Source of the DNA: an uncultured Mycoplasmatota bacterium
Lineage (GTDB): Bacteria > Bacillota_I > Bacilli_A > RF39 > UBA660
Reading direction: 5' to 3'
Length of the DNA stretch: 38,691 bases
Assembly: GCA_945948625.1 (NCBI GenBank)
Contig: CAMFBT010000002.1
Span: 1-38,691, forward strand
Shown here: piece after piece, positions 8,078 to 38,557 of the stretch
Layout of the letters: each line of letters opens with the position of its first letter
Position numbering within the stretch: the first letter of the stretch is position 1
Translations under genes and position numbers: made by a program
Notes under the pieces: generated by a model
What the model was told of the DNA's origin: nothing
Seen by the model: only the letters and a program-made list of their open reading frames with translations
Database searches by the model: none

Positions 8078-9172
8078 TTAATTCATATAATTATTTAATA
8101 TATAATTCTTTATCTCATCATATTCATTATTTATTTTATTATCCAATATTTTTTTCTCAACATCATCAATAATATCTTTAATATAATTATCAGGTTTTCT
8201 ATTTAATATTTTAATAATATCATTACCATTTACAACAATATCACTTCTGTTAATAATAGGAAGCTTACTATACATTTTATTTAATTTTCTCTTAGATAAT
8301 CCTTTAATATCACAATATACAGTACATAAATACAAACCATATTTATATAAAAGATAATTATCTATTTTATCATATTCCAATAATTTCCTTAATTTTTTCA
8401 TTTGTTCCTTTTCAATCTTAGTAAAAGGATAAATATCATCAACCTCTAACTGCGTCCATATACCTATTAAATCAGTACATAAAATAATATTATTTAATTT
8501 ACTTATTTCTAATATATTAGTTAAATTAAGATCAATAATTAGTTTTTTACCCCTTTCCTTATTTTTTGAAGAAAAAATTTTATCTAACTCTTCCTTTTTT
8601 CTTTCAAAAGAAAGATTTTTAAGCAAATAACCATATTTATACAAATAATGATAAGTTTTACTTTCAATATCAAAATCAAGTATTGTAGCAAATCTAATAC
8701 ATCTAAGTATTCTAAGTGAATCTTCTTTAATTCTATATCTAGGATTTCCTACAGTTCTAAGTATTCTATTATCAAGATCACTTCTTACTCCCAATATATC
8801 TAGTACTTCCCCACTTCTATCAATACAAAAAGTATTAATAGTAAAATCCCTTCTAAGTAAATCTTTTTTTATATCTTTAATATATTTAATCTTTACTGGT
8901 TTACGATTATCCTCATATTTTATTTCTTTTCTAAAAGTAGTAACATCAAATTTATATCCTTTATATAAAATTACAACACTACCATACTGCATATCAGAAA
9001 CACAAACATTATCAAATAAATTTAATATATCTTTAGGTGTAGCACTAGTACATATATCAATATCATTACTCTTTTTACCAAGTAATACATCCCTAGTATA
9101 ACCACCAACAATATAAGCCATATAACCATTATCATTAAATATTTTTAATATTTCCTTTGCTTTATCTTCCAT
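8078..9172 (-). CDS. cca: CCA-adding tRNA nucleotidyltransferase / poly(A) polymerase-family protein
   Basis: The head-domain motif GGYTRDVLLGKKSNDIDI is present, followed by RRDFTIN and a probable tRNA-binding C-terminal region. SD gaggt precedes the ATG. Confidence 0.85.
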   Translation of the reverse strand: MEDKAKEILKIFNDNGYMAYIVGGYTRDVLLGKKSNDIDICTSATPKDILNLFDNVCVSDMQYGSVVILYKGYKFDVTTFRKEIKYEDNRKPVKIKYIKDIKKDLLRRDFTINTFCIDRSGEVLDILGVRSDLDNRILRTVGNPRYRIKEDSLRILRCIRFATILDFDIESKTYHYLYKYGYLLKNLSFERKKEELDKIFSSKNKERGKKLIIDLNLTNILEISKLNNIILCTDLIGIWTQLEVDDIYPFTKIEKEQMKKLRKLLEYDKIDNYLLYKYGLYLCTVYCDIKGLSKRKLNKMYSKLPIINRSDIVVNGNDIIKILNRKPDNYIKDIIDDVEKKILDNKINNEYDEIKNYILNNYMN

Positions 9173-11349: not shown

Positions 11350-11458
11350 AATATACCTCACTTACTCTATTATCATAAATATTATATCATAACTTTAATA
11401 GTTTTTTAACATTTTTTTAATAATTTCATATATTATTTTAGAAAGGAGTATTATTTAT

Positions 11459-11926
11459 ATGTATGGTAACTATCTAAATGGTCCACTTATGATGCCAAAT
11501 ATGTCATATGGTCCAATTATGAATAATGGAATGAGAATGGCATCAAGTATCCCTTATATGGCAAGACAATCTTCACTAGGAAATGGACTACGTTCACTAC
11601 TAGGAATAGGAGGATCTAGTACTGGAGCAGCTCGTGGTATACTAGGAGCAACTCGTGGTATAAACTGGTCAACACTTCTTGGAAATGCATCAAAAACATT
11701 AGGAGTAGTTAACCAAGCAATACCAATAGTAAAAGAAGTAAGACCAATGATAAACAATATGAAATCAATGCTAAAAGTAGCATCTATTTTCAAAGATGAA
11801 ACCGATACAAATACTAATACAAATAGTAACACAAAAAATACCACTACTAGTAGTAGTGATACAATTGAAAATAATAACTATAAAAATGATACTTATAACC
11901 ATAATGAACCAAATTTCTTTATATAA
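11459..11926 (+). CDS. Gly/Met/Asn-rich hypothetical protein, tentatively YqfQ/VrrA-like
   Basis: SD aaaggag lies upstream of the ATG. The central segment GINWSTLLGNASKTLGVVNQAIPIVKEVRPMINNMKSMLKV resembles the conserved core I remember from Bacillus YqfQ. The tail is low-complexity Thr/Asn/Ser. The family assignment is from memory only. Confidence 0.55.
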   Translation: MYGNYLNGPLMMPNMSYGPIMNNGMRMASSIPYMARQSSLGNGLRSLLGIGGSSTGAARGILGATRGINWSTLLGNASKTLGVVNQAIPIVKEVRPMINNMKSMLKVASIFKDETDTNTNTNSNTKNTTTSSSDTIENNNYKNDTYNHNEPNFFI

Positions 11927-11935
11927 GAAATTTTT

Positions 11936-12442
11936 TTATTTAATTACTTTTATATTAAATTTATTATAAATTAGTTTTATTATAAAGTAACTTACACTTG
12001 TATATAAAACTGTCATAATCAAACTATGAGTAAGAATATCACCTAATAATACAAAACCATATATACTTCCAGAAGCAATATTAAGAATTAAAAAAGTTAA
12101 AACATGATATACAATAATACAACTAAAACTTAAAACATTAGCCATAAAAATATTATTAGGTAAAAAATTATTTAAAAACTTAATAAACAAAGCAATAACA
12201 AAAAACAAAACTAAATTAATAAGAAAAGTAGAAGTATATAGCACATCAAATAATATTCCAAATATTATTATTAATATAAAATATTTTTTATCATTAGAAA
12301 AATAAGGATATATAACAACAAAAGAAATAATTATATATATTGTACTAAAATAACTAACATAACCAAAAGTACTAGAAAAAACATTTGACATAAAATTATC
12401 TAGCAAAAAAGAAATAATCAAATAAATAATACTTATTATCAT
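11936..12442 (-). CDS. mreD: rod shape-determining protein MreD
   Basis: It is a 168-aa protein of about five TM segments. Its ATG overlaps the mreC stop (ATGA). Position and topology are typical of MreD; it has no strong sequence motif. Confidence 0.7.
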   Translation of the reverse strand: MIISIIYLIISFLLDNFMSNVFSSTFGYVSYFSTIYIIISFVVIYPYFSNDKKYFILIIIFGILFDVLYTSTFLINLVLFFVIALFIKFLNNFLPNNIFMANVLSFSCIIVYHVLTFLILNIASGSIYGFVLLGDILTHSLIMTVLYTSVSYFIIKLIYNKFNIKVIK

Positions 12443-13299
12443 TTATTATCACTCTTTCTTTTTAAAATACTAACATAATTAATATCACTAAAATCCGCAG
12501 ATGGCTTAACCTTTATAACTTTAGCTAAATCATAAGAATCTGTCGTAATTTCGCTTACAGTACCTATTAAAATTCCTGATGGAAATATACCACCTAAACC
12601 AGAAGTATATACTTTATCACCAATATTTACATCTTTAGTATTACTTATACCTTCTAATTCCAAAACATTATCATTATAATTATATCCATTAATTAAACCA
12701 TATAAATTAGTATCACCATTACTAATATGTACAGATATCTTATTATTAGTATCACTAGTAGTTATTAATTTTACATCAGATGTAAATGTTGTAGTATTAA
12801 TTACCCTACCAATTAATCCTTTTGAAGTAATAACAACCATATCCTTTTCAACACCATTATAACTTCCCTTATCAATAGTAATTTTATTATACCAATAACC
12901 AACATTTCTACTTATAACAGAGGCATTTAAATACTCATAATCAGTTAAAGAATAATCAATATTAAGTTCATCTTTAAGAGCCTCAAGTTGTCTTCTTAAT
13001 TCAATATTCTCTGTCTCAATAGATAAAATTCTATCCATTGAAGTTTCTAATATATCATTATCTTTTTTTACATTCTTTAACTCATTATAATCACTTATTT
13101 TATTTTTAACATAATCAAATGGATAAACAACTATTTTTTCCACATATATTAAAGTATCCTTAAAGAAAGATTCAACTTTATTTAATTCTCTTTCTTTTTT
13201 TAATGATACCGAAAAAATGACAAATAAAACAATTATCAATACTATCACAATTAATAATACATACTTTTTAGGAATACCTTTTTTCTTTTGTCCAAACAT
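12439..13299 (-). CDS. mreC: rod shape-determining protein MreC
   Basis: An N-terminal TM anchor is followed by a coiled-coil (ENIELRRQLEALKDEL). Beta-barrel domains carry VVITSKGLIGRV and GDKVYTSGLGGIFPSGILIGTV. Confidence 0.88.
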   Translation of the reverse strand: MFGQKKKGIPKKYVLLIVIVLIIVLFVIFSVSLKKERELNKVESFFKDTLIYVEKIVVYPFDYVKNKISDYNELKNVKKDNDILETSMDRILSIETENIELRRQLEALKDELNIDYSLTDYEYLNASVISRNVGYWYNKITIDKGSYNGVEKDMVVITSKGLIGRVINTTTFTSDVKLITTSDTNNKISVHISNGDTNLYGLINGYNYNDNVLELEGISNTKDVNIGDKVYTSGLGGIFPSGILIGTVSEITTDSYDLAKVIKVKPSADFSDINYVSILKRKSDNK

Positions 13300-13370
13300 A
13301 TTATATCACTTTCCTATCACTCTTATTATATAATATTTTTTAATAAATTAAAAGAACTTATTAAATTTTA

Positions 13371-14048
13371 TCATAAATTATTATCTTCAAAAAAACTATA
13401 ATAATTATCATTTCCTATTATAATATGATCCATTAAAATAATACCATGAAGATTTCCTAACTGCTCTATTTTTTTTGTTAAATCAATATCATTTTTACTA
13501 GGAGTTGAATTACCTGAAGGATGATTATGAATACATACAATATAACTAGCAGATAATAAATATGCTGTTTTAAATATTTCTCTTGGATGAACTAATGAAT
13601 AATTAACAGTCCCCAAAAATAATAATTTTTTATCTATATATTTTTTTTGATTATCTAAATATACAACATAAAACATTTCTTGTGTAACATTCTTATATAA
13701 AGTATGAAAATAATCAACAATTGCCATAGGACTAGTTAAATAAACCAAATTTTTATATTTATTATCCTCGTAAACCCTTCTACCAAGTTCAATTGCTGCA
13801 ACAATCTCAATAGCTTTAATTTTACTCATTCCTTCTATTTTCATTAATGTATTTATTTCTATATTTGAAAGTTCATTAATATTATTAACAGATGATAATA
13901 TATTATAAGAAATTTCTTTTATTCCCATCTTCTTAGTACCAGATTTTAGTATTATTTCAATTAATTCATTATTAGAAATATTTTCTTTTCCATATTTAAT
14001 TAATCTCTCTCTTGGCTTTTCATCTTCAGGTAATTTTTTTAAATTCAT
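13371..14048 (-). CDS. radC: RadC-family JAB/MPN domain protein (UPF0758)
   Basis: An N-terminal HhH-like region (PRERLIKYG) is present. The C-terminal JAMM motif reads HNHPSGNSTPSKNDI. SD ggaggtg precedes the ATG. Confidence 0.88.
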   Translation of the reverse strand: MNLKKLPEDEKPRERLIKYGKENISNNELIEIILKSGTKKMGIKEISYNILSSVNNINELSNIEINTLMKIEGMSKIKAIEIVAAIELGRRVYEDNKYKNLVYLTSPMAIVDYFHTLYKNVTQEMFYVVYLDNQKKYIDKKLLFLGTVNYSLVHPREIFKTAYLLSASYIVCIHNHPSGNSTPSKNDIDLTKKIEQLGNLHGIILMDHIIIGNDNYYSFFEDNNL

Positions 14049-21360: not shown

Positions 21361-24300
21361 TTACGACCTTTCCTGTTTATTTTCAATTTTTAATTGAATA
21401 TCAAACACAGTACTATCACCAAGTTTAAGAAGAGTTAAATTACCATCTTTATCAACATAATAATAACTAATATTAATAGTATTATTAACACCAAGTTCTT
21501 TTCCATCAGGAATATCAATAGTAAGATATGGAAAATTATCACTATCTAATGTAAAAACTATATTATCTGGATCAGTATCATTAACTTTACCAATAACACC
21601 AGAAGCAATTCTTTCTCCACCCTGAACAGTAATACTATATTCAATACCTTTTAAAGAACTAGTAAGATTAGAAGCTCCAACAAAAGTAAGTAAAATTTTA
21701 TTGTTAGATACAGCTGTTGGAGTAACAGCTCCTAATGAAAATCCTAAATCACTTTTTGTATATTGATCTTTTCTAACATAAACTCTAGAACTTTTTTCAC
21801 TCTCACTTAAGGATACATTATTACGATAAGTATCAGCATAAGCATAAATAACATATTTAGTATCAGCATTCAAATTATCAAAAGTAATTTCTATTACTTG
21901 TCCACTATTAGTATTACTTAAAACAGTACATGTCTTACCATTTTTAAAATTACAAGTATTATTCTTAATGTCAACCTCTACTAAACAATCATTAACATTA
22001 GAACAAGCATTTTGATAAGAAGAATTTTGAAGTTCAACCATATACTTACCATCATTAATAACCCTATGGCTATCATTTACACTAATTTTATATTTAATAC
22101 TATGTTTATAACCACTAGAAGAACTTTCAATAATAGCCTCTTGATTATCAACCTTAATGTCAGGATTTTTAAGTTCAGGAAAATCAATATAAACCGAACT
22201 AGTAGCAGACTGTTTAATTTTATCATTAAATAATTCAAGTTTCTTATTTAAATCTGTAGTAACAGCATAAACTTTTAAAGTATAATAATTAGAACCAAAA
22301 ACAAAATCATTTCCAGAAATATCTTCTCCATATGAAGCAGTAATAGTTCCCTTAGAATTAATATTAAAATCATTATTTAAAATAGTTCTCTGATATTTCA
22401 TTTCATCATTAATATCATATATTTCATACAAAATATCAAAATTAACATTAGTTTTTAAAACATACTTTAAATTTAAAATTCTCTTACTATAAACATCTTC
22501 ACCAATACTAGAAGTAACATCAATACTAAGTTCCTTAAGAACACCATCCTTATTAAGAGTTTTAAAACTATCCTTATATTCAACATAACCATTAACATTA
22601 TAATCAAACAAAGGAGTTTTAACCTTAGTACCATTCTTATTCATATCAGCAGATATCTTATAATAATATTCACTATCAGGATCAAGACCTATAACTGTAA
22701 CTTCATTCAAATTATCATAATCAGTCTCTTCAGTTTTAACAAGAACTTCCTCTGAAACACAATCAGAATCTTCTATATCACAATAAGTTTTTTTATAAAT
22801 ATCAATATAGAATTTATATTTACCATCAGTTTTAACAAAATCAGAATTTAAAGTATCTTCATCTACAGATAAATTAATATTAAATACAGCACCATTAATA
22901 AGTGAAGTTGCCTTAGAACTAACCTTAGGAGTAATACTAGTAAATTTAAAATTATTATCACTAGTTTGAATATCAACCATATCTAACACCTTAAGATTAA
23001 TATATTTAACATTAGCTTCATAAATCCCACTAAGAATAGGAGTAAAATTATCAGTAACTTTGTTAATATCTCCAAAAGAAACAAACTTTTGCTTATCAAT
23101 ATCAATCATATTATTAGTAGTAAGTTTCCACATAGTACTAGATTTATCAAAAGAAGAACTCAAAATGCCCATTGGTTTAGTACTATTATAAAATACAATA
23201 TTACTACCATTATCTTTAATATAAATATAACTTCCAGGTTCACTAATACTATTAGCCTGATATACAAAACCAACTTTTCCAGCATCCTTTGCACTAACTA
23301 ACCCTAATTGTTCAAAATAACTACCAATTTTAGATTTCTGACTAAATCCAATATATCCAGTATCATAAAAAGCCTTTAAATTAACTTTAACATCCTTACC
23401 CTTAAAATTAGCAATATCCTTATAATCAATAATAAAACATTTTCTATCCCCACAACTTTGAATATCACTATCAGTAAATGAAGAAATAACTTTTTCATAT
23501 TTTTCACTACCAGCACTTAAAGTAAGTAAATAAGCAGAAACCCTATCCAAAAATTCATTATCATCAATAATAATCTTAAGCCTATTATCAAAATTACCAT
23601 ATTCAAGTTCATAACCCATATTAGCAGTTTTACCATCATGATATCCATCAAAATAAAATTTATTCAAAGTAACATTACTAACTTCAGAATCTTTTAAATT
23701 AGCTCTACTATAACTAATAGTATAAATATCAGAAGCACTTAAATTACCAAAAGTAACATCCTTAAATTCATCAGTTTTCTCAATAACACTAGAAAAGACA
23801 TTGTCATTAATAGAATAATATAGTAAATATTTATCACTATCACTATCTTTTACCAATGCATTATCAATATCAGTAACAGAATATTTATAAGTAATAGAAT
23901 CACTAGTACTATTATCAACATACATTTTAAATACAGGATCCCTTTTAACAGCATTAAACAAATTACTAATAGGCCTATTAGAAGGATAAACACTATCAGC
24001 CTTACCATCATTATCAGTATCAAGATTAATCTCAAAACCAAACTTATAAGAATTACCTCTTCTCATATCAGTATCTTCTATTGATATATCTGTACCATAA
24101 TCCAAAAAGAAATAAGTTTCATTAACATCAGTACCTACATAAGATACATCCTTAGTATCAATTATCTTACCAGATTTATCATAAGCATAAAATTTAATAG
24201 ACCTAATAGGATTATCAACTAATTTAAGAACATTATTAATCTTATCCTTATCAAATACAGCAGTAACCTTATAGCCTCTAATAGTATTCTTATCAAGTTT

Positions 24301-26949
24301 ATTATCATAAGAAACACTATATTCTCCAGATTCAGTCATAGTATTAGTAATTTCATCAACAAGTATCTGTGGAGAACTAACCTCATCCTCTAATAAAAGA
24401 ATAGATGGAGTTTCAAAAACATACATATTATCAAGAATTACAAACTGATTAGTCATAGTTGCATCAAAAGCATCAGTAACTTCAATTGTATAATATTTAC
24501 TTAACTTACCACCAGATAACTCTCTTAACATATCAAGATTTTCAATTCCAAACATATTAGAAGTCAAAGTAAATTCCTTATTATAGTAAAGTTCCTTAAT
24601 ATTACCAGTAGTAGTAAAAGTACCAATAGGTTCAGTAATAATACTATTTTTAACATTTCCATTATATAAATTAAATGTAATAGAAGCAATTTCATTAACA
24701 GAATCATCATCAGGATCAGTACTAATCATTTCAGTGCTAACAGAAATAGGAGTTTCAAAACTATAATTATTACTCTTCCAATTCTGCATTTTCAAAGCCT
24801 TAGTACCTTTAGTACTAGCACTAAAACTACCAATATACATACCACTTTCAAGACCTAGCCCTGTTTGCATATCAACATCAGCATAAACTTCAAATGTATA
24901 CATAGTATCTTCAGCAAGACCACCTAATTTTAAATTATAACTCATATTAGTAGAATCAAAACTAACACCACTAACACTTTTCTTAATCTTATCAGGTCCA
25001 TAATATTTAATAATAATTTCATTTTCCTGATCAAAACAACTTCTACCACTATTTGGAACAGTACAGCCCTCATCATTTATAATTACAGTACCACTAATTT
25101 GATTAAAAGATGTTTCTTCTTCATTAATAGTAAATGAAACAGTAGGTTTACCAAGTACTTGAAAATAATTACTAAAACCAGTATCAATTTGATTATATTT
25201 ATAATTATCATAATAATCTACAATAACCTTAAAACGATAATCAACATTACTTACAATACCATTCTCACCAAGTTTTAATTTTTGCTGTTTAAGTTCATTA
25301 TCACTAAAACTATAAACAGGATCAGCACTAGCAATATTATCTTCAGTAATATCAATAGCTTTATATATTTCATAAGTATACCTAACTATACTTTTATCAG
25401 AATCTTCAGGCTCATCCATTAATAAAGAAAACTCTTTTCCATCATCACTTACTTTAACAGAAATATCCCCAAGTTTAGGTTTTTCTTTCAATGTAATGTC
25501 ACTAGTACTAATAGTATAAACATCAGCATTATTAAGATTATTAAATACAACCGAATCAACTTTAACATTATATGTAGTATTTTTTTCTAAACCTTCAAAA
25601 AGTATAACATCATTGTTATCATTAAGAATAGTTTTCGTATTTCCAATCTGTTTACCATCTTCACCATACAAACTAATATTAGCAGACTTAACTAAACTAG
25701 TCCCAAAATCCAAATAATATGATAAAGAATCAGTAGTAACATATTCTCTAACCAAACTCAAATCTAAACTATCAGTTTTAAATATCTTTTTAAAATATTG
25801 AACACTTGAAACATTATTTTCTCCACTAATAGTCATGACATAATTAGCATCAGGAGTCAAAGAACTAATATTAACACTTTGAATATCAGAAGAATTAACA
25901 AGTGTTTTTTCATAAACTGTCTTTCCAGTATCAGAATTAACTAATGTAAGAAGTAAATTACCTTTGATGTAATCAGCAGTATCAATAACTTGAAAACTTG
26001 CTTCAATAGTACTAATACCAACTTTAGCAGTAATTAAATCAACAGATACTTCTTTTTTTATAACAGACTGTGTAGTCTCCTCTTGATCACCATTTCCATT
26101 TGTAATATTACCTTCATTACCAGTACCAGTACTACTACCATCAGAAGGATTATTATCACTAGAATTTCCATCACTATTCTTATCGTCACCCTTAACTTTA
26201 CCATTATCAGGAGTAATATCAATATTTTCATTACCATCAATAGTCATTTCAGAAAGAGATAATTTCACTTCTTCCCCTTTAATAACATTTTTATCTCCAA
26301 GGTCAATTTTCACATCATTTCCAACATAAATAGTGGTTCCATCACTAACAGTCTGATAACTACCTTCTTGATTTTCAATTCTAACAACACCATCTTCTAT
26401 AAATAAAATTTCAAAATAATTACCACTTACTGTTTCATTACTACCTGCTAACTTAATTTTAATATCTTTACCAACAATAATATATTTATTATCAGTAATT
26501 CTTCCCAAAAAATTACCAAAAATCAAGGTTTTATCAGAAGATTCAATATAATATCCCCCATTATTATATTTAATAATAGACTCATCAGTAATATTATAAT
26601 AAGGTACCAAAGTAGTATTAATATTATCCAAATCTAATATAACCCCATTCTTCATAAAAGATAAAGAATTATCTAAATAATGAATAAAATTATTTTTATT
26701 AGTACTAACTTCTTTATTATCTACATCTTTAAAAACATATTCATCAAATACATTTTCCTTATATACAGTATTATCATCAAAATATAATTTATTACTTTCA
26801 GTAGCAGTACTATTAATAATATAACCAGCACTATAAAATTCCTTACTAGACTTTCTAGTAAGAAATAAAGTACCTACTGCTAAAACAATCAAAGCAATAA
26901 TACTAATAACTAAAATAATCCAAAAACTTTTACCACCAATTTTCTTCAT
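21361..26949 (-). CDS. giant (1862 aa) N-terminally anchored multi-domain surface protein, FN3/Ig-like repeats
   Basis: This is a single uninterrupted ORF with TM helix FWIILVISIIALIVLAVGTLFL. An Asp/Asn/Ser/Gly linker follows the juxtamembrane module. At least six domains carry the FN3-type L-x-x-(D/N)-(T/S)-x-Y signature: LTPDANYVMTISG, LEKNTTYNVKVDS, LAEDTMYTFEVYA, LDPDSEYYYKISA, LNADTKYVIYAYA, LSASDIYTISYS. There is no LPXTG motif or choline/SLH anchor. Confidence 0.85.
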   Translation of the reverse strand: MKKIGGKSFWIILVISIIALIVLAVGTLFLTRKSSKEFYSAGYIINSTATESNKLYFDDNTVYKENVFDEYVFKDVDNKEVSTNKNNFIHYLDNSLSFMKNGVILDLDNINTTLVPYYNITDESIIKYNNGGYYIESSDKTLIFGNFLGRITDNKYIIVGKDIKIKLAGSNETVSGNYFEILFIEDGVVRIENQEGSYQTVSDGTTIYVGNDVKIDLGDKNVIKGEEVKLSLSEMTIDGNENIDITPDNGKVKGDDKNSDGNSSDNNPSDGSSTGTGNEGNITNGNGDQEETTQSVIKKEVSVDLITAKVGISTIEASFQVIDTADYIKGNLLLTLVNSDTGKTVYEKTLVNSSDIQSVNISSLTPDANYVMTISGENNVSSVQYFKKIFKTDSLDLSLVREYVTTDSLSYYLDFGTSLVKSANISLYGEDGKQIGNTKTILNDNNDVILFEGLEKNTTYNVKVDSVVFNNLNNADVYTISTSDITLKEKPKLGDISVKVSDDGKEFSLLMDEPEDSDKSIVRYTYEIYKAIDITEDNIASADPVYSFSDNELKQQKLKLGENGIVSNVDYRFKVIVDYYDNYKYNQIDTGFSNYFQVLGKPTVSFTINEEETSFNQISGTVIINDEGCTVPNSGRSCFDQENEIIIKYYGPDKIKKSVSGVSFDSTNMSYNLKLGGLAEDTMYTFEVYADVDMQTGLGLESGMYIGSFSASTKGTKALKMQNWKSNNYSFETPISVSTEMISTDPDDDSVNEIASITFNLYNGNVKNSIITEPIGTFTTTGNIKELYYNKEFTLTSNMFGIENLDMLRELSGGKLSKYYTIEVTDAFDATMTNQFVILDNMYVFETPSILLLEDEVSSPQILVDEITNTMTESGEYSVSYDNKLDKNTIRGYKVTAVFDKDKINNVLKLVDNPIRSIKFYAYDKSGKIIDTKDVSYVGTDVNETYFFLDYGTDISIEDTDMRRGNSYKFGFEINLDTDNDGKADSVYPSNRPISNLFNAVKRDPVFKMYVDNSTSDSITYKYSVTDIDNALVKDSDSDKYLLYYSINDNVFSSVIEKTDEFKDVTFGNLSASDIYTISYSRANLKDSEVSNVTLNKFYFDGYHDGKTANMGYELEYGNFDNRLKIIIDDNEFLDRVSAYLLTLSAGSEKYEKVISSFTDSDIQSCGDRKCFIIDYKDIANFKGKDVKVNLKAFYDTGYIGFSQKSKIGSYFEQLGLVSAKDAGKVGFVYQANSISEPGSYIYIKDNGSNIVFYNSTKPMGILSSSFDKSSTMWKLTTNNMIDIDKQKFVSFGDINKVTDNFTPILSGIYEANVKYINLKVLDMVDIQTSDNNFKFTSITPKVSSKATSLINGAVFNINLSVDEDTLNSDFVKTDGKYKFYIDIYKKTYCDIEDSDCVSEEVLVKTEETDYDNLNEVTVIGLDPDSEYYYKISADMNKNGTKVKTPLFDYNVNGYVEYKDSFKTLNKDGVLKELSIDVTSSIGEDVYSKRILNLKYVLKTNVNFDILYEIYDINDEMKYQRTILNNDFNINSKGTITASYGEDISGNDFVFGSNYYTLKVYAVTTDLNKKLELFNDKIKQSATSSVYIDFPELKNPDIKVDNQEAIIESSSSGYKHSIKYKISVNDSHRVINDGKYMVELQNSSYQNACSNVNDCLVEVDIKNNTCNFKNGKTCTVLSNTNSGQVIEITFDNLNADTKYVIYAYADTYRNNVSLSESEKSSRVYVRKDQYTKSDLGFSLGAVTPTAVSNNKILLTFVGASNLTSSLKGIEYSITVQGGERIASGVIGKVNDTDPDNIVFTLDSDNFPYLTIDIPDGKELGVNNTINISYYYVDKDGNLTLLKLGDSTVFDIQLKIENKQERS

Positions 26950-27098: not shown

Positions 27099-27174
27099 GT
27101 CTCCTTAGCTCAGTTGGTAGAGCAACTGACTCTTAATCAGTGGGTCTAGGGTTCGAATCCCTAAGGGGACACCA
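27099..27174 (+). tRNA. tRNA-Lys (anticodon CTT)
   Basis: I folded the cloverleaf by hand. The acceptor is gtctcct/aggggac, the D arm gctc..gagc, and the anticodon stem actga/tcagt with loop ctCTTaa. The T arm is taggg-ttcgaat-cccta. CCA is encoded. Confidence 0.93.
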
Positions 27175-27198
27175 TTTTTTATATTTTAAAAAAAATAC

Positions 27199-27227
27199 TT
27201 GAAAGTTCATTATATATATGATATAAT
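27199..27227 (+). promoter_or_regulatory. internal sigma-A-type promoter ahead of tRNA-Ile/tRNA-Glu
   Basis: The sequence reads TTGAAA, a 17-nt spacer, then TGaTATAAT (extended -10), in the 72-nt gap after tRNA-Lys. Confidence 0.5.
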
Positions 27228-27246
27228 GTAGAAGCAACGGAAAAAT

Positions 27247-27323
<77 letters not shown>

Positions 27324-27330
27324 TTTTTTT

Positions 27331-27407
27331 GGCCAGTTGGTGAAGTGGCTTAACACACTGCCCTTTCACGGCAGCATTCATGGATTCGAATTCCATACTG
27401 GTCACCA
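27331..27407 (+). tRNA. tRNA-Glu (anticodon TTC)
   Basis: The acceptor is ggccagt/actggtc. The anticodon stem is ctgcc/ggcag with loop ctTTCac. The T arm is atgga-ttcgaat-tccat. CCA is encoded. Confidence 0.92.
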
Positions 27408-28923: not shown

Positions 28924-29877
28924 TTATTTTTTTAATTCACGTTTTAATTCATCAATAATATTTTCATTTTTTAATAATAAATCAGTTAAAAAATCAACAA
29001 GTTGTTGTGAACATCCCCAACTTTTAGTTAAAATATGTTGATAAAAATATTTTTCATCATATTTTAAATTGAATTTATCACATATTAATTTTAAATCATA
29101 TTGAGATATTTTTTTATTTATTCCCTTTCTTCTTAAATTATCAGATACAATTTCTCTTACCCTTTTTTGATTATAACAATGTGTTAAATTGGTATCCTTC
29201 AATTCCTTAATAATTTTCACTGCCTCTTCTCCTTCTTTTGCAATTCTAAATGTAGTTTTTGCTTCAGAAATATCTTTAACTATCTTCACATTTAAATCTA
29301 CTTGTATAGCCAATTTCTCATTTGAATTACTAGAAATCAATTGTGAAGACTCGTGCTTAATTTTACTATACCTAGAAAAAATATTATCTCCATATCTACT
29401 AAGAATTTCTTCATCTGACATTTCTTCATTATTTATAACTAGGCTCATAAATGAGCTATCTATTTTTTTAGTTATATCTCTATTAAAGAAATCAAACATT
29501 TTTTGAGAATAATTTAAAACATTAGCTTGCATAAAAGGTAAATAAATAGAATCCATTTCTTTAATTACAAAATGTGTAGATGTGTTTCTTAATCCTATAA
29601 TAATTTCTAGGTTTTTTCTCACTGGATCTTTATCATTAGTAAAAACTTTTGAAACACAATCAGATAATGAAATAGTCCTATCAACTTTATTAGGATAATA
29701 AATACTGCTACCTTCTTTCAACATTTTTGCTTTAAGTAATAATTCCCAAGCATTACATATAAAAAATGAAAATCCTTCTAATCTATATTTTATTGTTGGT
29801 TTATTATAGATTTCAATAGCCATTAAAAATGCTTCTTCACTCTTATCCAAAAAATTATTTATTAAATTTTCTGTCAT
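28924..29877 (-). CDS. DUF3644-like protein with HEPN-type R-x4-H motif (putative RNase/abortive-infection-type effector)
   Basis: The N-terminal helices AFLMAIEIYNKPTIKYRLEGFSFFICNAWELLLKA and the motif GLRNTSTHF (R-x4-H) match the DUF3644/HEPN pattern as I remember it. The C-terminal ~150 aa are unassigned. It has its own SD (ggaga), an extended -10 (tgttataat), and is monocistronic. Confidence 0.6.
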   Translation of the reverse strand: MTENLINNFLDKSEEAFLMAIEIYNKPTIKYRLEGFSFFICNAWELLLKAKMLKEGSSIYYPNKVDRTISLSDCVSKVFTNDKDPVRKNLEIIIGLRNTSTHFVIKEMDSIYLPFMQANVLNYSQKMFDFFNRDITKKIDSSFMSLVINNEEMSDEEILSRYGDNIFSRYSKIKHESSQLISSNSNEKLAIQVDLNVKIVKDISEAKTTFRIAKEGEEAVKIIKELKDTNLTHCYNQKRVREIVSDNLRRKGINKKISQYDLKLICDKFNLKYDEKYFYQHILTKSWGCSQQLVDFLTDLLLKNENIIDELKRELKK

Positions 29878-32269: not shown

Positions 32270-33187
32270 TTATGTATTAATTAATTCAGATAGAATATCA
32301 TCCCATGTTTTATTTTCTATATTAGGAGAAACAGAAACCAACTTATCAACTTCTTTTATAAGTTCTGCATTTTTAAATTCAAACTCACTAATAAGTTCAT
32401 CTAATTTAATTTTATTTTTTACTTCCCTAATTTTTTCTTTATCATCTAAATCTTCAGCAATTTTTAAAGCTTTATATTTTTTAACATCATCAACATTAAA
32501 CATATCATTTTTTATATAATTATCAAAATTCTCATTTATTATTAATGAAAAATCCTTTTCTGGTATAGGAAAATCATAACACAATTGGCCCTCCATTCTT
32601 TGATTAACAAAAGGAAAAGAATTAGTAAAAAATGATAAATCTTTAATATCATATTTTTCATTAACTAAATCAACCATTATAATCATACTATATATATCAG
32701 TAAATCCCATAGTCTTTTGTAACTGTTTCACATTTCCAATTTTAACAGAATATATTTCTTTAGCAGCTGTTTTTAATTCTAAATAAACTTTTTTACCACT
32801 ACTTGTAGTTATTAAAAAATCCGGTGTAGTATCCTTAATACCAGCTATAGTTACTTTTTTATTTTCATGATCATATTTCAAATCATGTTCAGCATCTTTA
32901 CCAGTAAACTTAACATCTGATACATTAGGATTTCGCTTAATAAGTAAAAAAAACAACTCTTCAATATACCATCCATATAATATATTCTTTAAATAATTAA
33001 ACTTTCTTCCCATACCACTAGGAGCATCATATCCATTTTTTTCTGCTTCCTTCATTTCATTATATTTAAATAAATACTTATTATAAACATTATCTAATAT
33101 ATCTTGAGAAATCAAATTATTAAACATTGGATCATATAATTCTTTTACATCTTTAATAGTCATATCATCTAATCTAATATTTTTCAT
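32270..33187 (-). CDS. putative type II restriction endonuclease (PD-(D/E)xK fold)
   Basis: It lies immediately downstream of the cytosine methyltransferase. The candidate catalytic motif is TTPDFLITTSSGKKVYLELKT (PD ... E-x-K). The start is either ATG 33187, with gaggt 8 nt upstream, or ATGATG 33205, which overlaps the methylase 3' end. Confidence 0.6.
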   Translation of the reverse strand: MKNIRLDDMTIKDVKELYDPMFNNLISQDILDNVYNKYLFKYNEMKEAEKNGYDAPSGMGRKFNYLKNILYGWYIEELFFLLIKRNPNVSDVKFTGKDAEHDLKYDHENKKVTIAGIKDTTPDFLITTSSGKKVYLELKTAAKEIYSVKIGNVKQLQKTMGFTDIYSMIIMVDLVNEKYDIKDLSFFTNSFPFVNQRMEGQLCYDFPIPEKDFSLIINENFDNYIKNDMFNVDDVKKYKALKIAEDLDDKEKIREVKNKIKLDELISEFEFKNAELIKEVDKLVSVSPNIENKTWDDILSELINT

Positions 33188-33191
33188 ATTA

Positions 33192-34244
33192 CTAAACCTC
33201 ATCATTTCTAGGCATATTTTTTATAATTGCCTCAATTAATTTTGGAGGTACACCCTCACCAATAACCTTTCTTACTAGATTTTCACTTGCCCATTCAGGA
33301 ATCTCCCAATCATCAGGTAAACCAGTCAAAATCATTAATTCCTTCAAAGATAATACTCTAGCATCACTATAAGTACCATCTTTCAAAAGTCTTCCAGGAT
33401 GAACATTATTTTGAGATGAAATACCACCATTACACATAGTAATAGTAGGAGCAGGTTTATCCCAAGACATCCTCTTGTATGTAGTAGAAAATCCTTTAAT
33501 CCTAGTACCATCTTCCTTTTGAGGAAAATATATTTTATTATCAAAAGCAGATTTTCCAGTAGGAGTATGCTTCATCCACAATATATGCCTTTCATTATGT
33601 CTTGGTGCAAAATGATATTTAATATCACTTTTTTGACCAGATTCTAAACTTGGTAACCATCCAATAGCATCCCTAACAGTAATCTGTCTTTGCTTTTCAG
33701 GTAATTTCCAATCCCCTAACTTACTCATTAAAACAATAGTTCTATTTCTAGTTTGAGGAGTACCATAATCCGCAGCATTTAATATATTAAAACTAATTTT
33801 ATAATCATTTCCTAATTCACTATTAATATAATCAACAATCTTAATCTTTTCATCATTAATTAAAATAGAAGTCTTTAACATAGTAGGAACATTTTCAATA
33901 ATAACATTTTTAGGCTTTACTTCCTTAATAAAATCAACAACTTTAATTATCAAAGAATTTCTAGGATCATGTTCATCCATTTTTCCAGCAACACTCATTC
34001 CTTGACACGGAGGAGTAGCAAGTAAAAATTCTACACCACACTCTTTAGATTTTTTAACAACCAAATTAAATATTTCATCATCAGTAATATCACCAGTTAC
34101 TACATCAGTATCAGGATAACAAAACTTATAAAACTTAGCTCTATCTTCTAATAACTCATTAGCAACTACAATATCAATATCATATTTCTTCAAATATGTC
34201 TCAGCAATACCAACATTACAAAATAAAGAAGTCCCCTTTATCAT
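33192..34244 (-). CDS. DNA (cytosine-5)-methyltransferase
   Basis: The canonical m5C motifs are present: I-like SLFCNVG, IV PPCQGMS, VI ENV, VIII QTRNR and X GEGVPP. A strong SD (ggaggtg) precedes the ATG. Confidence 0.92.
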   Translation of the reverse strand: MIKGTSLFCNVGIAETYLKKYDIDIVVANELLEDRAKFYKFCYPDTDVVTGDITDDEIFNLVVKKSKECGVEFLLATPPCQGMSVAGKMDEHDPRNSLIIKVVDFIKEVKPKNVIIENVPTMLKTSILINDEKIKIVDYINSELGNDYKISFNILNAADYGTPQTRNRTIVLMSKLGDWKLPEKQRQITVRDAIGWLPSLESGQKSDIKYHFAPRHNERHILWMKHTPTGKSAFDNKIYFPQKEDGTRIKGFSTTYKRMSWDKPAPTITMCNGGISSQNNVHPGRLLKDGTYSDARVLSLKELMILTGLPDDWEIPEWASENLVRKVIGEGVPPKLIEAIIKNMPRNDEV

Positions 34245-34300: not shown

Positions 34301-34392
34301 TCAAAAAATACATTCATATAACAAAAAGAGGATAACATTGACATAAACTGTTATCTCTCTATTTTAACATTTATAAAAAATACCAATTTTTA

Positions 34393-34527
34393 ATTTTTTA
34401 ATTTTCCGCCTAAAGGCGGATTACCAGAGTGCCAATCGCCTTTGGCTTACCGCACTAGTCCCTATCAGACTTCGCCTGATTGAGGGACATTTTTGACAAG
34501 TACTTCCTACCGCTTTACGGTTATCTG
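34393..34527. other. GC-rich, multiply hairpinned non-coding element downstream of the TasA-like gene (3' UTR structure or independent small RNA)
   Basis: G+C rises sharply against AT-rich flanks. The hairpins are ccgcc-taaa-ggcgg (34406-19), gccaa-tcgcct-ttggc (34431-46) and gtccct+atcag-acttcgc-ctgat+agggac (34458-88). On the plus strand the last one is followed by attttt, which is terminator-like. The taccgc element is repeated. There is no ORF. The transcribed strand is unresolved. Confidence 0.4.
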
Positions 34528-34544
34528 TTATGAAACAGATAACC
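34519..34544. repeat. perfect 11-bp inverted repeat with 4-nt spacer straddling the stop codon of the TasA-like gene
   Basis: The arms are ggttatctgtt (34519-29) and aacagataacc (34534-44), separated by atga. The TAA stop occupies 34528-30. Confidence 0.9.
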
Positions 34545-36039
34545 TATATGGATCTGAACTAGTTCCTGTTCCCGACTCTATTTCTTGTTCAGAACCTAGA
34601 TAAAGGACTGGCGCGACCCCGAGCGCAACAAAGGTGCCGTCGTTGTAGCTGACAAAACCGGGCGGATACACATACCACGCATTGTAGGAACGGCCCGAGA
34701 CAGGGGTTAATAACCATCCATAATTATTACCATTGTTGGTAACAATATTCTTCATCCAGTTTGCACTTGTACAGGTTGAATCATCATAATAAAGTAAGTT
34801 TTGATTACAACTTCCTAAGTCGGCTGCATAACCATAATCTGATGGATAAGGTAATGCTATCTTTCCTGTCCATGTTGTTGGTCTTCCAGAATATACTGTA
34901 GTTCCTCTTTCATATCCATATATTTGATCTGAATATATTTCAGAAGTATTCCATCCTCCTAGATAGTATAGTGTATCTGATATTAGATTTCTTGTTGTAT
35001 CATTTTTTATTCCAGTACTTGTAAAATCACATGTTGTTGTGGCATTATTTTGTCCACTATAACATGAACCACTTCCAGAATTATAGTATAGACTTCCTCC
35101 AGTTCCACTATATCCTGGATTTAATAATTTCATTAATCTTGCATCTGTCCAATCATTTTTACCATTTGCTGATTCTGCTCCTGTACTAGTGTTTTTATTA
35201 TCCCATGAATATGATCCTATGATACTATTTCTCATTATTTTAACTTTACCATCAAATACTCCTATTATTCTCCATGTTTCACATGTAGAATCTGACTGAT
35301 TATCATAATCAGAACAATTAAAATATACATAATTACTAGGACTTGCTCCATAATATCTTATATTACCGCCAATATCTTGCATTAGATTATGATTAGTATC
35401 ATAACTATATGTAATATTGTTATTTGTTACAGTAGTATTTGGAGTAAATAAACCATTAATAAATGCTGCACCAGTTACTTCATTATTTGTACTAGTATAT
35501 ACAGCTTGACCATCAGTAACTATTTTAGAATTAAATACCTTTCCTATTTGACCATTTGGAGTATCAATACTAAGCCATACCCTAATAGAAATATCTATAC
35601 TTTCACCTGCAACAAGTGTAATATCACTCTTAATAATACTATTAGTTAAAGATGATAATGTAGTAACACCTCCATCATCAATCTTAATTTTAATATATTG
35701 AGGATCAACAGTAGCAATACTAGAAGTAGATAATAACTTAACATTAAACTTATAATCTAAATTACCTATATTTTTAATAGTAAAAGTATAAGGAGTAGTA
35801 TTAATACCATCAGTATCAGATATAGGTAAAGTATTATTTAAAGAAATAGTCTCCCCTTTAGAACTAGCTACAATAGAAAGTAATCCAGTACTATAACTTT
35901 CATTATTAGAAGCCGTCTCTTCATGATAGAATAAAGAATAAGTAGAATTAACTAAAGAAAAGCCAATTAAAGCTACAGCAAGAATTACAATACTTATAAT
36001 AATTTTCTTTTTATTCTTAACAAAAAATTCTTTATCCAT
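34528..36039 (-). CDS. secreted TasA/camelysin-like protein with C-terminal lectin-like (DUF1566/DUF6273-like) domain; SipW-type signal peptide
   Basis: The track start is GTG; I use ATG 36039 with SD aaggtaggtg. The signal reads KKKIIISIVILAVALIGFSLVNSTYSLFYHEE, which resembles the SipW-cognate TasA-type leader (...TYAYF.D). The N-terminal beta-sandwich contains TFTIKNIGNLDYKF...GESIDISIRVWLS. The Gly/Ser/Tyr-rich C-terminal half has three Cys pairs. It ends in KIALPYPSDY...GWLLTPVSG...GVAPVLYL, the W-L-x-(S/T)-P ... G-V-R-P-like signature of lectin-fold domains. Confidence 0.75.
   Translation of the reverse strand: MDKEFFVKNKKKIIISIVILAVALIGFSLVNSTYSLFYHEETASNNESYSTGLLSIVASSKGETISLNNTLPISDTDGINTTPYTFTIKNIGNLDYKFNVKLLSTSSIATVDPQYIKIKIDDGGVTTLSSLTNSIIKSDITLVAGESIDISIRVWLSIDTPNGQIGKVFNSKIVTDGQAVYTSTNNEVTGAAFINGLFTPNTTVTNNNITYSYDTNHNLMQDIGGNIRYYGASPSNYVYFNCSDYDNQSDSTCETWRIIGVFDGKVKIMRNSIIGSYSWDNKNTSTGAESANGKNDWTDARLMKLLNPGYSGTGGSLYYNSGSGSCYSGQNNATTTCDFTSTGIKNDTTRNLISDTLYYLGGWNTSEIYSDQIYGYERGTTVYSGRPTTWTGKIALPYPSDYGYAADLGSCNQNLLYYDDSTCTSANWMKNIVTNNGNNYGWLLTPVSGRSYNAWYVYPPGFVSYNDGTFVALGVAPVLYLGSEQEIESGTGTSSDPYRLSVS
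34595..34710 (-). other. candidate DGR variable region (VR-like patch) with G/C-run at its 3' end
   Basis: This covers the 35 codons for TPVSGRSYNAWYVYPPGFVSYNDGTFVALGVAPVL. By my count 16 end in C and 8 in G, including the run gtc agc tac aac gac ggc acc. The coding strand has 13 A in 105 nt. The neighbouring codons are host-like and A/T-ending. The patch ends in gcgctcggggtcgcgcc (34610-26). No template repeat or RT is present in the window. Confidence 0.45.
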
Positions 36040-36080
36040 AGTTAACACCTACCTTATCCTTCTACATTGTATCATATTTT

Positions 36081-37409
36081 TTATTTAGATTCAATATATA
36101 CTTTCATAGTACCAATAAATGCACTATTCATATATTCATTAGTAATATTTTCATAACTAATCCACATACCTATCTTTATAGATAATTCACTTAATTTTTC
36201 AATTTCACCTTCATATATCAAATAATTATTATTCTTATTAGTAATACCACTAGTATTATCTAATTTATTATTAAGAACTTTATCTTTTACAATATTACCA
36301 TTAACATAAACATTATAATTAATATATTCAGTAGATAATCTTCTAGTAATATTATGTTTTTTATAATCATTAGTTTCTTCTAATACTATCATATAATTAG
36401 CTTTAGAAGTATTCTTATTTTCTAGTCTAATACCTTTAATATCCATAATATCTTTAATATTGATAATATTATTGCTATTATTACTATCAATAATTTCAAA
36501 AACATTATCATCATAATTAATATGTTCACTTTTTTCTACAATAATACTTGTATTATTATATATAACTTCTGCATATCCATTATCATAATAAATAACTTTA
36601 ATATTATTATGAACTTTCTTTTCATCAATCTTAAGATATTTAATATTATTCACTAATATATAATCTTTTTCTTTAATAGTTCCATTTGAATAATAAATCT
36701 TATTATTATCATTTTTTATAGGAACACTCACTCCACTTAAATTAGTAAAGAAAGAAATATCATTACTAGTAATATCACTATTCCTAACAAAGAAATTAAC
36801 ATTATCTTTATCAATAATAACACTACCATCAGATAAATAGATAATATCAATACCTAATTTATCATTTCTCTTATTTACACAAGTTAAATCTTTATAAATA
36901 GTATTAGCATTAATCTCATTATTTTCATTAATTCTATAATTACCATTTATAGGAAAAATTCTTTTATAAGTACCATCATTATACTTAATAATAATAGTTT
37001 TATCAGAATAAAACATAATAATTCCATTTTTAATATTTTTTTCTCCTATTTTAATAACTACACCTTTAAAATAATTATTATCAACAAGATTACTATCAAA
37101 AACCTTATTAGCATATTCACTAGTAATAGGAGTACCATTAATAATACTATTATCATCACCATCAAAAGTAACAACTACACCATTAGATTCATAATAAACA
37201 ATTGAAGAGTCTTTGATATTACTAAAAATTAAAGTAACAGCAATAATTAGTACAGTGACTGTTAAAAGAAGAGAAATAGTAAAAATAAGTTTTCCATTAT
37301 CAATTAGAAAAAGGATAAAAGGATTACGATATTTTCTTTCTTCTTCAATAGTAATCTTACTTTTATCTTCATCATATTTCTTAATATGAAATTTATTAGT
37401 TTTACCCAC
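36081..37409 (-). CDS. membrane-anchored protein whose C-terminal domain is paralogous to the TasA-like beta-sandwich (possible anchor/nucleator)
   Basis: It starts at GTG with SD gaaggtga, and there is no in-frame ATG nearby. The TM helix is LIFTISLLLTVTVLIIAVTLIF. Y-x-(S/D/N)-(D/N)-G hairpin-like motifs recur: FYSDKT..KYNDGTY, IYLSDGSV, IYYSNGTI, IYYDNGYA. The C-terminal segment IRLENKNTSKANYMIVL...STEYINYNVYVNG...GEIEKLSELSIKIGMWIS...FIGTMKV aligns by eye with FTIKNIGNLDYKFNVKL...DPQYIKIKIDDGG...GESIDISIRVWLS...FNSKIV of the downstream protein. Confidence 0.7.
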   Translation of the reverse strand: MGKTNKFHIKKYDEDKSKITIEEERKYRNPFILFLIDNGKLIFTISLLLTVTVLIIAVTLIFSNIKDSSIVYYESNGVVVTFDGDDNSIINGTPITSEYANKVFDSNLVDNNYFKGVVIKIGEKNIKNGIIMFYSDKTIIIKYNDGTYKRIFPINGNYRINENNEINANTIYKDLTCVNKRNDKLGIDIIYLSDGSVIIDKDNVNFFVRNSDITSNDISFFTNLSGVSVPIKNDNNKIYYSNGTIKEKDYILVNNIKYLKIDEKKVHNNIKVIYYDNGYAEVIYNNTSIIVEKSEHINYDDNVFEIIDSNNSNNIINIKDIMDIKGIRLENKNTSKANYMIVLEETNDYKKHNITRRLSTEYINYNVYVNGNIVKDKVLNNKLDNTSGITNKNNNYLIYEGEIEKLSELSIKIGMWISYENITNEYMNSAFIGTMKVYIESK

Positions 37410-37413
37410 AGTA

Positions 37414-38085
37414 TCACCTTCTTACAACAACAACATCACTTTTTTTCTTACTAACTTTTTTCTTAACCTTTTTACCTAGTTTAACAATATCATATGAAAG
37501 TACCGCTAAACAAGGAATTAATACTACAATAATAAGTCCACCTTTAGTAGCTAATAAACTTTGTATATAACCAAGTTTAGGAACCTTAAAAATAACTTCA
37601 CCTATAATATTAGTATCCTCTGCTAAAGTAAAATCTGGTGTATTATTTGCATCTCCTTGAGTTTGAAAAGTATATTTACCAGTAGTAGAATCATAATATT
37701 TTGCTTTAATTCTATGTGTAACAATTATATTAGAAATTCTAGCATCTGAAGATAAAAATGTAATAATATCTCCAACCTCTAAATCTTTAGCATCTCTTTT
37801 CTTAGTAATAACAATATCTTTAGGCATAATTTCTGGTACCATTGAACCAGTAAGTACAACATAAGCATTATATGCCGGAGGAGAATTATCCCCTTTATAA
37901 GCCCTAATCTTAATATCCGCTACATAAACAAGCAAAGTAAGACCAACTAATAAAAGCCATATAAATAAAGCATAAGAAATAACACTAGTAATAAATTTAA
38001 GCGGTTTAATCTTTTCCTTAGTAACATGAACTTTAAAATGTCTTACACCAAAATAATTATTATATTCACTTAAGTTAGAATCCAT
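37414..38085 (-). CDS. sipW: signal peptidase I, SipW (archaeal/ER S26B) type
   Basis: An N-terminal TM helix is present. The catalytic Ser motif is LTGSMVPEI and the His motif is VTHRI. A second C-terminal TM helix is followed by a Lys-rich tail. It is the first gene of the operon, with SD aggagtg. Confidence 0.85.
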   Translation of the reverse strand: MDSNLSEYNNYFGVRHFKVHVTKEKIKPLKFITSVISYALFIWLLLVGLTLLVYVADIKIRAYKGDNSPPAYNAYVVLTGSMVPEIMPKDIVITKKRDAKDLEVGDIITFLSSDARISNIIVTHRIKAKYYDSTTGKYTFQTQGDANNTPDFTLAEDTNIIGEVIFKVPKLGYIQSLLATKGGLIIVVLIPCLAVLSYDIVKLGKKVKKKVSKKKSDVVVVRR

Positions 38086-38200: not shown

Positions 38201-38557
38201 GGGGCTGCTTATGGCTTCGACGAAAATATAAGTATTTAATTAGCAAGACGTGCTCTTCGCGTAAAGAAGAAAATTAAACATAACTGGAAACAGCTATAAA
38301 AATGCTGTTGCTTATGCCTAGTTTTTTAAGGTAGCAACAGGTTCTACTAATTCTTTGTCTGTGAGAATTAGCAAGGACTTATAAAGCAGACTATATTATG
38401 ATTTAAGTTTAGACTTCATAACGAATAAATATAAACTAGCAAGTAATTATGATTGTGAGTTGTCTATTTACTTAGCGAATCCAATAACTCAATAATCTTG
38501 TAGAAGGTTAAATAACTTTATTTGCGGACAGGGGTTCGAATCCCCTCAGCTCCACCA
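38201..38557 (+). ncRNA. ssrA: transfer-messenger RNA (tmRNA)
   Basis: The 5' ggggctg pairs with the 3' cagctcc, including the G3:U alanine identity pair. The T arm is ggggttcgaatcccc and the RNA ends in CCA. The internal tag frame 38286-38321 (gga aac agc tat aaa aat gct gtt gct tat gcc tag) gives (A)GNSYKNAVAYA*. Confidence 0.95.

Follow-up and report, generated by a model that had tools for sequence, protein, structure and literature searches.

The stretch of DNA considered here, called the window throughout, comprises positions 1 to 38,691 of contig CAMFBT010000002.1 (assembly GCA_945948625.1) from an uncultured Mycoplasmatota bacterium. It is a piece of bacterial chromosome, with a transfer-messenger RNA (tmRNA), tRNAs, alaS, mreC, radC, dnaD, asnB and type IV pilus or competence genes. 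On its reverse strand lie a gene for a SipW-type signal peptidase, a companion open reading frame (ORF) and a gene for a 506-aa protein that ends in a lectin-like domain, followed by a structured 3' untranslated region (3'UTR) (Table 1). The last 15% of the 506-aa gene contains a patch whose composition is foreign to the rest of the window. We read this patch as the variable region (VR) of a target gene of a diversity-generating retroelement (DGR), most likely the frozen product of past diversification, and would give this reading a probability of roughly 0.85.

The patch consists of codons 448-482 (34603-34707), which encode TPVSGRSYNAWYVYPPGFVSYNDGTFVALGVAPVL. The original prediction had reported an abrupt switch to G/C-ending codons there, and a recount from the codon table gave exactly the same figures. 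That is, 16 of the 35 codons end in C and 8 in G (24 of 35 in total), seven NNC codons stand in a row (GTC AGC TAC AAC GAC GGC ACC), and adenine makes up 13 of the 105 bases, while the codons directly upstream are host-like. The GC content at third codon positions is 0.118 across all 31 ORFs of the window, whose overall GC content is 25%. Sliding windows of 35 codons (n = 10,607) hold a mean of 3.9 G/C-ending codons (standard deviation 2.2), and the highest count outside the target gene is 13, versus 24 in the patch (binomial P about 6e-15). In 200-nt windows, the GC content climbs from about 0.25 to 0.45-0.49 at 34400-34800.

The target protein has about 8000 homologues, and its C-terminal domain is matched by 3032 cluster representatives (50% identity). 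Closely related proteins differ chiefly inside the segment WLLTP.S..S..AW.V..SG.V....GVAPVLYL. Based on the DNA of ten same-locus or paralogous genes, a codon alignment was made in which eleven VRs were scored. Columns with three or four different bases occupy 17 of the 32 first codon positions and 13 of the 32 second positions, compared with 3 of the 32 third positions, which are nearly always a fixed C or T; in the flanking coding sequence no such skew towards positions 1 and 2 is seen. The framework codons TCG, TCC, GCG TGG, GT., GGC and GGG GTC GCG CCA are invariant, even between species with diverged flanking codons. As far as the aligned sequences can tell, the codon-position pattern is the footprint of adenine mutagenesis templated by AAC/AAT codons. 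The L053/P0007 lineage, where the same segment is AT-rich and host-like, shows how the segment appears without DGR input. The same design as in the VRs is found in the template repeat (TR) of an unrelated phage with 61% GC (L070), which reads TCC AAC AAT GCG TGG AAT GTC AAC. This fits a GC-rich framework that is a property of the TR/VR class rather than of the host.

The retroelement itself was found in relatives of the source genome. A reconstructed TR was translated into an Asn-rich peptide and searched in a protein collection, and this search yielded two short ORFs reading ...TPNSGNSNNAWNVNSDGNVNNNNNAYNANG.VP.LY... on the AT-rich contigs L072 and L073. Among species-representative genomes, the VR framework is carried by 'uncultured Tenericutes bacterium UMGS1739' (on three contigs) and by 'MAG: Bacilli bacterium LOHA07_bin.021' (MAG, metagenome-assembled genome). 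The L073 TR is followed downstream by an ORF that has a homologue on the UMGS1739 contig L067. On L067, the 3' end of a target gene with its VR is succeeded by the 3'UTR hairpins and terminator and by a pre-TR element; next come the TR, a spacer and two small ORFs, and then Avd and the N-terminus of a reverse transcriptase (RT). The pre-TR element and the spacer are both conserved, and the Avd matches NCBIfam DivGenRetAVD (E 3.6e-11) and Pfam bAvd (E 2.4e-7). By means of this RT fragment, whole cassettes were located on contigs L074-L079 of a relative with 26% GC, where they adjoin hrcA-grpE-dnaK. Their Avd matches NF033474 (E 4e-10) as well as Pfam bAvd, and their RT contains the motifs IGNMTSQ and YMDD. 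In L074, the VR (8309-8408) and the TR (8647-8746) are identical at 87 positions and differ at 13, and all 13 mismatches are located at adenines of the TR (P about 1.7e-8). On the contig of P0133, the RT lies at the contig edge and no TR is present. The best PDB match of the RT of this clade is 8ub7 (E 8.5e-19), a 328-aa RT with IGSLTSQ and YMDD, which we take to be bRT of the Bordetella phage DGR. The variation among homologues and the cassettes of relatives thus bear out the view, first put forward from the codons of the patch, that it is a DGR variable region.

The TRs of the relatives also delimit the VR. After CCAG, the VRs read TCCTTTATCTAGG..., while the TRs of L067, L073 and L074 read CCCTTTAAGTAGCGGGCTTCTACTAGG. 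Since VR and TR diverge directly after ...GCGCCAG, the G/C run at 34608-34620 would be the end of homology, similar to an initiation of mutagenic homing (IMH) sequence; the likeness had been suspected from the run itself, and the place where homology ends in the relatives agrees with it. Polymorphisms just 3' of the VR (CAA/CTA, GAA/GGA, GAG/GGG) were considered as a part of it and rejected, because TR homology stops at CCAG. The flanks of the TR are conserved in the relatives as well, namely TGTTTAATATAGGG upstream and CCAGCCCTTTA[AT][AG]TAG[CT]GGG(C)TTCTACTAGG downstream.

The VR is situated in a domain of lectin-like fold, as had been proposed. For the C-terminal 310 aa, AlphaFold2 gave a model with a mean predicted local distance difference test score (pLDDT) of 93.8 and a predicted template modelling score (pTM) of 0.93, based on 92 family sequences. 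The best PDB match of this model in Foldseek is 9qa6, the N-terminal CTLD (a C-type-lectin-like domain) of the Thomasclavelia ramosa IgA peptidase (IgAse), at E 3e-10 and 17% identity over 313 aligned columns; its authors describe a C-type-lectin-like core resembling Legionella Lcl-CTD (PMC12237041). Matches to other C-type-lectin folds are sub-significant (E above 1), and Mtd, with which a comparison had been suggested, is not among the Foldseek matches of the domain. Among viral models, the top named matches are phage DUF6273 proteins (E 7e-7 to 1e-4). DUF6273 has a C-type-lectin fold and is an already documented DGR scaffold with a C-terminal VR (PMC10743442, PMC11792537). Pfam DUF6273 (PF19789) gave no match to the window protein at E <=0.1, and the gathering score was not reached. 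It does match 5 of 19 close relatives (best E 0.011) and, in a diverse set, 10 of 60 relatives (best E 7e-7), and certain homologues and TR-ORFs in databases have precomputed PF19789 annotations. Searches of the PDB with the target protein, by sequence and by profile, returned nothing useful. Because the structural likeness is clear despite the missing Pfam score, the domain is best called a divergent relative of DUF6273. It would display about 15 diversified residues.

A GC-richer 3'UTR of about 145 nt, conserved between the window, L053-L067 and L072-L074, follows every target gene and also stands upstream of the TR in L067, L072, L073 and L074. In the window, its hairpins and terminator (Table 1) are the inverted repeats that had been noticed after the patch. 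The core of its second hairpin, H2, is CAGGC-GAA-GTCTG in the window and CAGGC-NNN-GTCTG across the family. RNAalifold predicted 29 pairs in the 3'UTR from 9 sequences, 12 of them with compensatory changes, and Rfam contains no family for the element. The element may act on mRNA stability or as a terminator, or else belong to DGR target recognition. In L063, a relative with the same locus, the full pre-TR element and the first ~15 nt of a TR are located 3' of the target gene, and the start of the 3'UTR occurs there a second time, an arrangement that is a deletion scar of a cassette. In the window, ATTGGTATT may be all that is left of the pre-TR element, and a C5-methyltransferase gene with a putative restriction partner follows.

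Contig L072 (1-521) shows another arrangement. An adenine-rich, TR-like copy follows the pre-TR element, and after it come a VR-type tail (CCAGTC..., C-terminal codons and a second 3'UTR copy) and the 311-aa gene that is also seen downstream of the L065 target. Neither Avd nor RT is present on the 521-nt contig. The copy may be either a standalone TR or pseudo-target, or else an assembly chimera.

Table 1. Features of the target locus in the window.
Feature	Coordinates	Strand	Description and evidence
DGR target gene	34528..36048	(-)	ORF of 506 aa; N-terminal SipW-type signal/anchor, beta-rich middle, C-terminal lectin-like domain with VR
Putative SipW-type signal peptide	35914..36048	(-)	Basic stretch, hydrophobic stretch, STYSLFYHEETASN motif
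DUF6273-like, C-type-lectin-like domain	34531..35460	(-)	310 aa; AlphaFold2 and Foldseek; the VR covers the last beta-strands, domain residues 252-285
VR	34608..34707	(-)	ACCCCT...GCGCCAG; anomaly of third-position GC and variation among homologues; the TRs of relatives span exactly this segment
Candidate IMH-like 3' end of VR	34608..34620	(-)	GC-rich, GGGGTCGCGCCAG; VR/TR divergence right after CCAG
Structured 3'UTR	34400..34544	(-)	Stop-codon hairpin 34519-34544, H1 34509-34521, H2 34458-34488, H3 34429-34455, terminator 34400-34419
Possible last remnant of pre-TR element	34379..34387	(-)	ATTGGTATT (TTGGTATTAACA...TGTTTAATATAGGG in relatives); alignment with L063, L067, L073 and L074; weak 9-nt match
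Companion ORF	36081..37409	(-)	442 aa; the gene order peptidase-ORF-target is kept in all same-locus relatives
SipW-type (SipW/archaeal-type) signal peptidase I	37414..38085	(-)	Two genes upstream of the target, co-oriented; TIGR02228 90.4 bits (cutoff 51.85)

The VR signature, the fold, and the cassettes of relatives with their adenine-specific TR/VR pair are the footing of the mechanism that we propose. RT and Avd would have copied an adenine-rich TR, composed of AAC/AAT codons within a GC-rich framework, with errors at adenines, and the resulting cDNA would have replaced the VR as far as its GC-rich end GGGGTCGCGCCAG (mutagenic retrohoming). Retrohoming from such a template would leave NNC/NNT codons, scarce adenine and a GC content foreign to a genome of 25% GC. 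Directly 3' of one target paralogue, the clade has the cassette, made up of 3'UTR hairpins and TR, a spacer with two small ORFs after it, Avd and RT; the remaining paralogues, which have the same framework, would be served in trans. The window copy has no cassette, with a restriction-modification pair downstream instead, and gene conversion between paralogues would shuffle whole VR alleles. We infer that the VR of the window was derived from a TR of its own genome that lies out of sight.

Several results weigh against the view that the patch is a VR frozen after past diversification. As had been stated at the outset, no TR-like repeat of the patch is present in the 38.7-kb window, no RVT_1, RT or Avd Pfam match was obtained for its ORFs of at least 100 aa, and no RT motif occurs in its six-frame translation. 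The four TRs recovered from relatives have 11-23 non-adenine mismatches each to the window VR, and none is cognate; in UMGS1739, even the TR and its adjacent VR differ by 6 non-adenine mismatches and one codon indel. Two scans of 185,579 species-representative genomes gave no TR with the window framework, and the patterns used in both could miss a real TR. The first pattern, for the TR only, was a guess and had 0 matches. The second, for the framework of both VR and TR, demanded TCC and had 4 matches, all of them VRs; it missed the TR of UMGS1739, since this TR shows GCC in place of the TCC common to all VRs. When these scans of large collections were made, the true TR flanks had yet to be found. 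In viral contigs, five patterns based on the framework or on the TR gave no cognate TR. In addition, L055 and L056, the only two strains that match each other otherwise but differ in their VRs, owe the difference to gene conversion and not to fresh mutagenesis, and the inactive status of the source genome is extrapolated from its relatives.

Some further searches complete the picture. A sixth pattern, for the TR only, found nothing in the viral contigs except the unrelated GC-rich phage TR of L070, and a fully degenerate pattern, with either the VR base or A at each position, was discarded, as its matches in the viral contigs were poly-A runs only. Neither the VR nor the C-terminal peptide had a BLAST match among annotated phages, and a scan of metagenomes yielded a single locus, where the homologue is shorter and has no lectin domain.

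The state of the RT genes and of the VRs in the relatives bears on whether the system is still at work. Among 5.8e9 proteins, the homologues of the RT N-terminus are all 151 aa or shorter (15 of 15), even on contigs of 50-79 kb. In L074, the RT gene is frameshifted by a 1-nt deletion at 10300-10340 (GGGTTATG to GGGTATG), which was found in 19 contigs. In L080, a 13-nt duplication and a 114-nt deletion (560-640) have removed the KIDISKYF...DH motif. In UMGS1739 (L067, reverse strand, about 2180), a premature stop follows IINHY. Every RT examined in the clade is disrupted, and with these lesions and further truncated ORFs at least four sampled genes are broken, each at a different site. Inactivation thus seems to have happened repeatedly and independently, and not as a single ancestral loss. 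Six contigs, from at least 5 samples, were read for the VR of L074, and all have the same sequence. In five protein clusters at 90% identity, variability in the VR does not exceed that of the remaining protein, with 0, 6, 0, 2 and 0 variable VR columns, and the window protein differs from P0002, which comes from another sample, by one residue outside the VR, the VR being the same. The variation that had been predicted is found at codon positions 1 and 2 across the eleven VRs, and not as an excess in the VR within the clusters. Since the RT genes are broken, the VRs are stable within lineages and L063 bears a scar, the window VR is most likely a fossil, or else a remote target that is rarely rewritten. 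Of the two possibilities offered by the original prediction, a remote target or a relic, the relic fits better.

The VR could instead be an active remote target, with 34608-34707 rewritten in trans by an intact DGR elsewhere in the genome, located by a paralogous target or on a prophage. We regard this as unlikely, given that no intact RT of the clade occurs among the 5.8e9 clustered proteins, that VRs do not change inside the 90% clusters or across samples, and that no cognate TR was found in the scans made. There are points in its favor, however. The paralogues of UMGS1739 (L064/L067 and L066) have one common VR framework, as targets served in trans would; the RT of L074 is intact except for its single frameshift, which indicates a recent loss; the window VR is still GC-rich, in comparison with the AT-rich version in L053; and MAGs frequently miss DGR cassettes. 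A bolder form of the same idea, to which we attach an equally small chance, holds that an intact DGR elsewhere still rewrites the orphan VR in trans, that the target, in a reduced, AT-rich lineage of gut Bacilli/'Tenericutes', is a surface or fibre protein processed by SipW whose lectin tip can be programmed, that the recurrent, independent RT lesions act as a switch to lock useful specificities, and that gene conversion between paralogues then redistributes these.

Gene conversion does occur at this locus. Over 15.7 kb, the only differences between L055 and L056 are 56 at the 3' end of the target gene, and the VR of L056, together with ~100 nt of upstream flank, is identical to that of the paralogue L066. 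Fresh DGR activity was considered as the cause and rejected, since indels and synonymous changes are among the differences, upstream of the part that is homologous to the TR; these, with the identity of L056 and L066 across VR and flank, point to gene conversion. The AT-rich ~100 nt upstream of the VR in the window (34710-34830 (-), around C-xx-x-L..Y...TC) is polymorphic between strains too, and because shared alleles, indels and synonymous changes make up this variation, it is ascribed to recombination or gene conversion between paralogues and not to DGR mutagenesis. That no DGR was ever involved, and that the patch is a mosaic, either acquired horizontally or recombining, which ordinary recombination and diversifying selection keep diverse, is very improbable, because such a mosaic, although both the L056 conversion and the alleles of the upstream 100 nt speak for it, leaves unexplained the four-state variation at codon positions 1 and 2 on an invariant framework, the TR copies with A at exactly the variable positions beside Avd and RT, and the design common to the unrelated phage TR of L070, and is already contradicted by the TR/VR pair of L074.

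The target was also proposed to be a SipW-dependent, TasA-like protein, of which the first part is plausible. Its own N-terminus did not match TIGR04088 (cognate_SipW), but the paralogue P0009 (GSTYAMFTASAE) passes that model with 21.4 bits versus a cutoff of 19. The peptidase (Table 1) scores 85.5 bits with the SipW equivalog model NF046067, below the cutoff of 190, and its synteny with the target is kept in L053-L063. The target is read as a secreted or surface protein that the SipW-type peptidase, encoded two genes upstream, probably processes. Membership in the TasA/camelysin family is not established. Pfam Peptidase_M73 did not match the window protein, and a PDB profile search was empty; of 19 relatives, 4 have a sub-threshold Peptidase_M73 match (E about 0.012), and a set of 60 diverse relatives gave none with E <=0.01. 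A full-length AlphaFold2 model from 19 close relatives had a pLDDT of 32 and was unusable. The 442-aa companion ORF has no family match.

Some neighbouring genes are worth recording. Between the target 3'UTR and a downstream 167-aa gene, 32270-34244 (-) encodes a C5 cytosine DNA methyltransferase (Pfam E 2.5e-52), overlapped by a 311-aa ORF without family match that is a putative restriction enzyme. Both are absent from the same-locus relatives and thus appear to be a strain-specific insertion, at the place where L063 holds the cassette scar. Likewise, a restriction-endonuclease-like protein with DUF3644 plus EC042_2821 (28924-29877 (-)) lies between genes for a CtpB-like protease and a cell-wall hydrolase, which are direct neighbours in L053 and L063, so that it would be another strain-specific insertion. 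A 1862-aa protein (21361-26949 (-)), with faint fn3 and purple-acid-phosphatase N-terminal matches, is kept downstream of the locus in relatives and is probably a large surface protein. The tmRNA (38201-38557 (+)) has the tag GNSYKNAVAYA, and the tRNA-Lys/Ile/Glu cluster is located at 27099-27407 (+). In L074, right after the DGR RT, a second, retron-type RT of 421 aa (11170-13600; NCBIfam retron St85 family, E 4e-28) is apparently flanked by a direct repeat of roughly 75 nt, matching in six-frame translations. A retron or defence RT may have inserted here, beside a decaying DGR.

The current view of the DGR mechanism is unchanged by this locus. What it adds to cellular DGR targets is an uncultured, AT-rich lineage of gut Bacilli/'Tenericutes' and a family secreted with a SipW-type signal. 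It also illustrates what may be left when a DGR decays: an NNC-rich island of foreign composition within a lectin domain, paralogues with different frozen specificities, a cassette scar, and RT genes independently broken in at least four ways. Orphan VRs can be recognized by composition and codon pattern alone, and confirmed via relatives, even when the cassette is missing from a contig or MAG.

Compared with the DGR of Bordetella phage BPP-1 (Mtd, Avd, TR and bRT), the clade has the same adenine-specific differences between TR and VR, an Avd, an RT with I-G-x-x-T-S-Q and YMDD, and a GC-rich VR 3' end after which VR and TR diverge (IMH versus IMH*). It differs in its order (target, TR, two ORFs, Avd, RT) and in that the first hairpin is located about 64 nt past the VR end, within a larger conserved 3'UTR structure, whereas the hairpin of BPP-1 abuts the IMH. 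Chromosomal DGRs of bacteria with surface-protein targets, some of them remote, include those of Treponema denticola TvpA and Legionella LdtA. With these the present system has in common a cellular DGR, a secreted or surface target of C-type-lectin fold, and several paralogues per TR. Unlike them, it has a SipW-type signal, where theirs is of the lipoprotein or TAT type, its RT is degraded in the sampled relatives, and the window copy is orphaned. TvpA is also cited in PMC10743442. The T. ramosa IgA peptidase's N-terminal domain (9qa6; PMC12237041) is likewise a C-type-lectin-like core in a surface protein of gut Bacillota, but it is no DGR target, has a metallopeptidase attached and is only 17% identical. 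The DUF6273 targets of gut-phage and prophage DGRs, such as the tentaclins and those of a Faecalibacterium prophage (PMC10743442, PMC11792537), are tail or capsid-decoration proteins, whereas the window target is chromosomal, in a housekeeping neighbourhood, with a SipW-type signal and with neither phage genes nor a cassette nearby, and its similarity to Pfam DUF6273 is marginal. Shared with them are the fold class, the location of the VR at the C-terminal end of DUF6273, diversification coded by AAC/AAT, and the possibility of more than one target per element.

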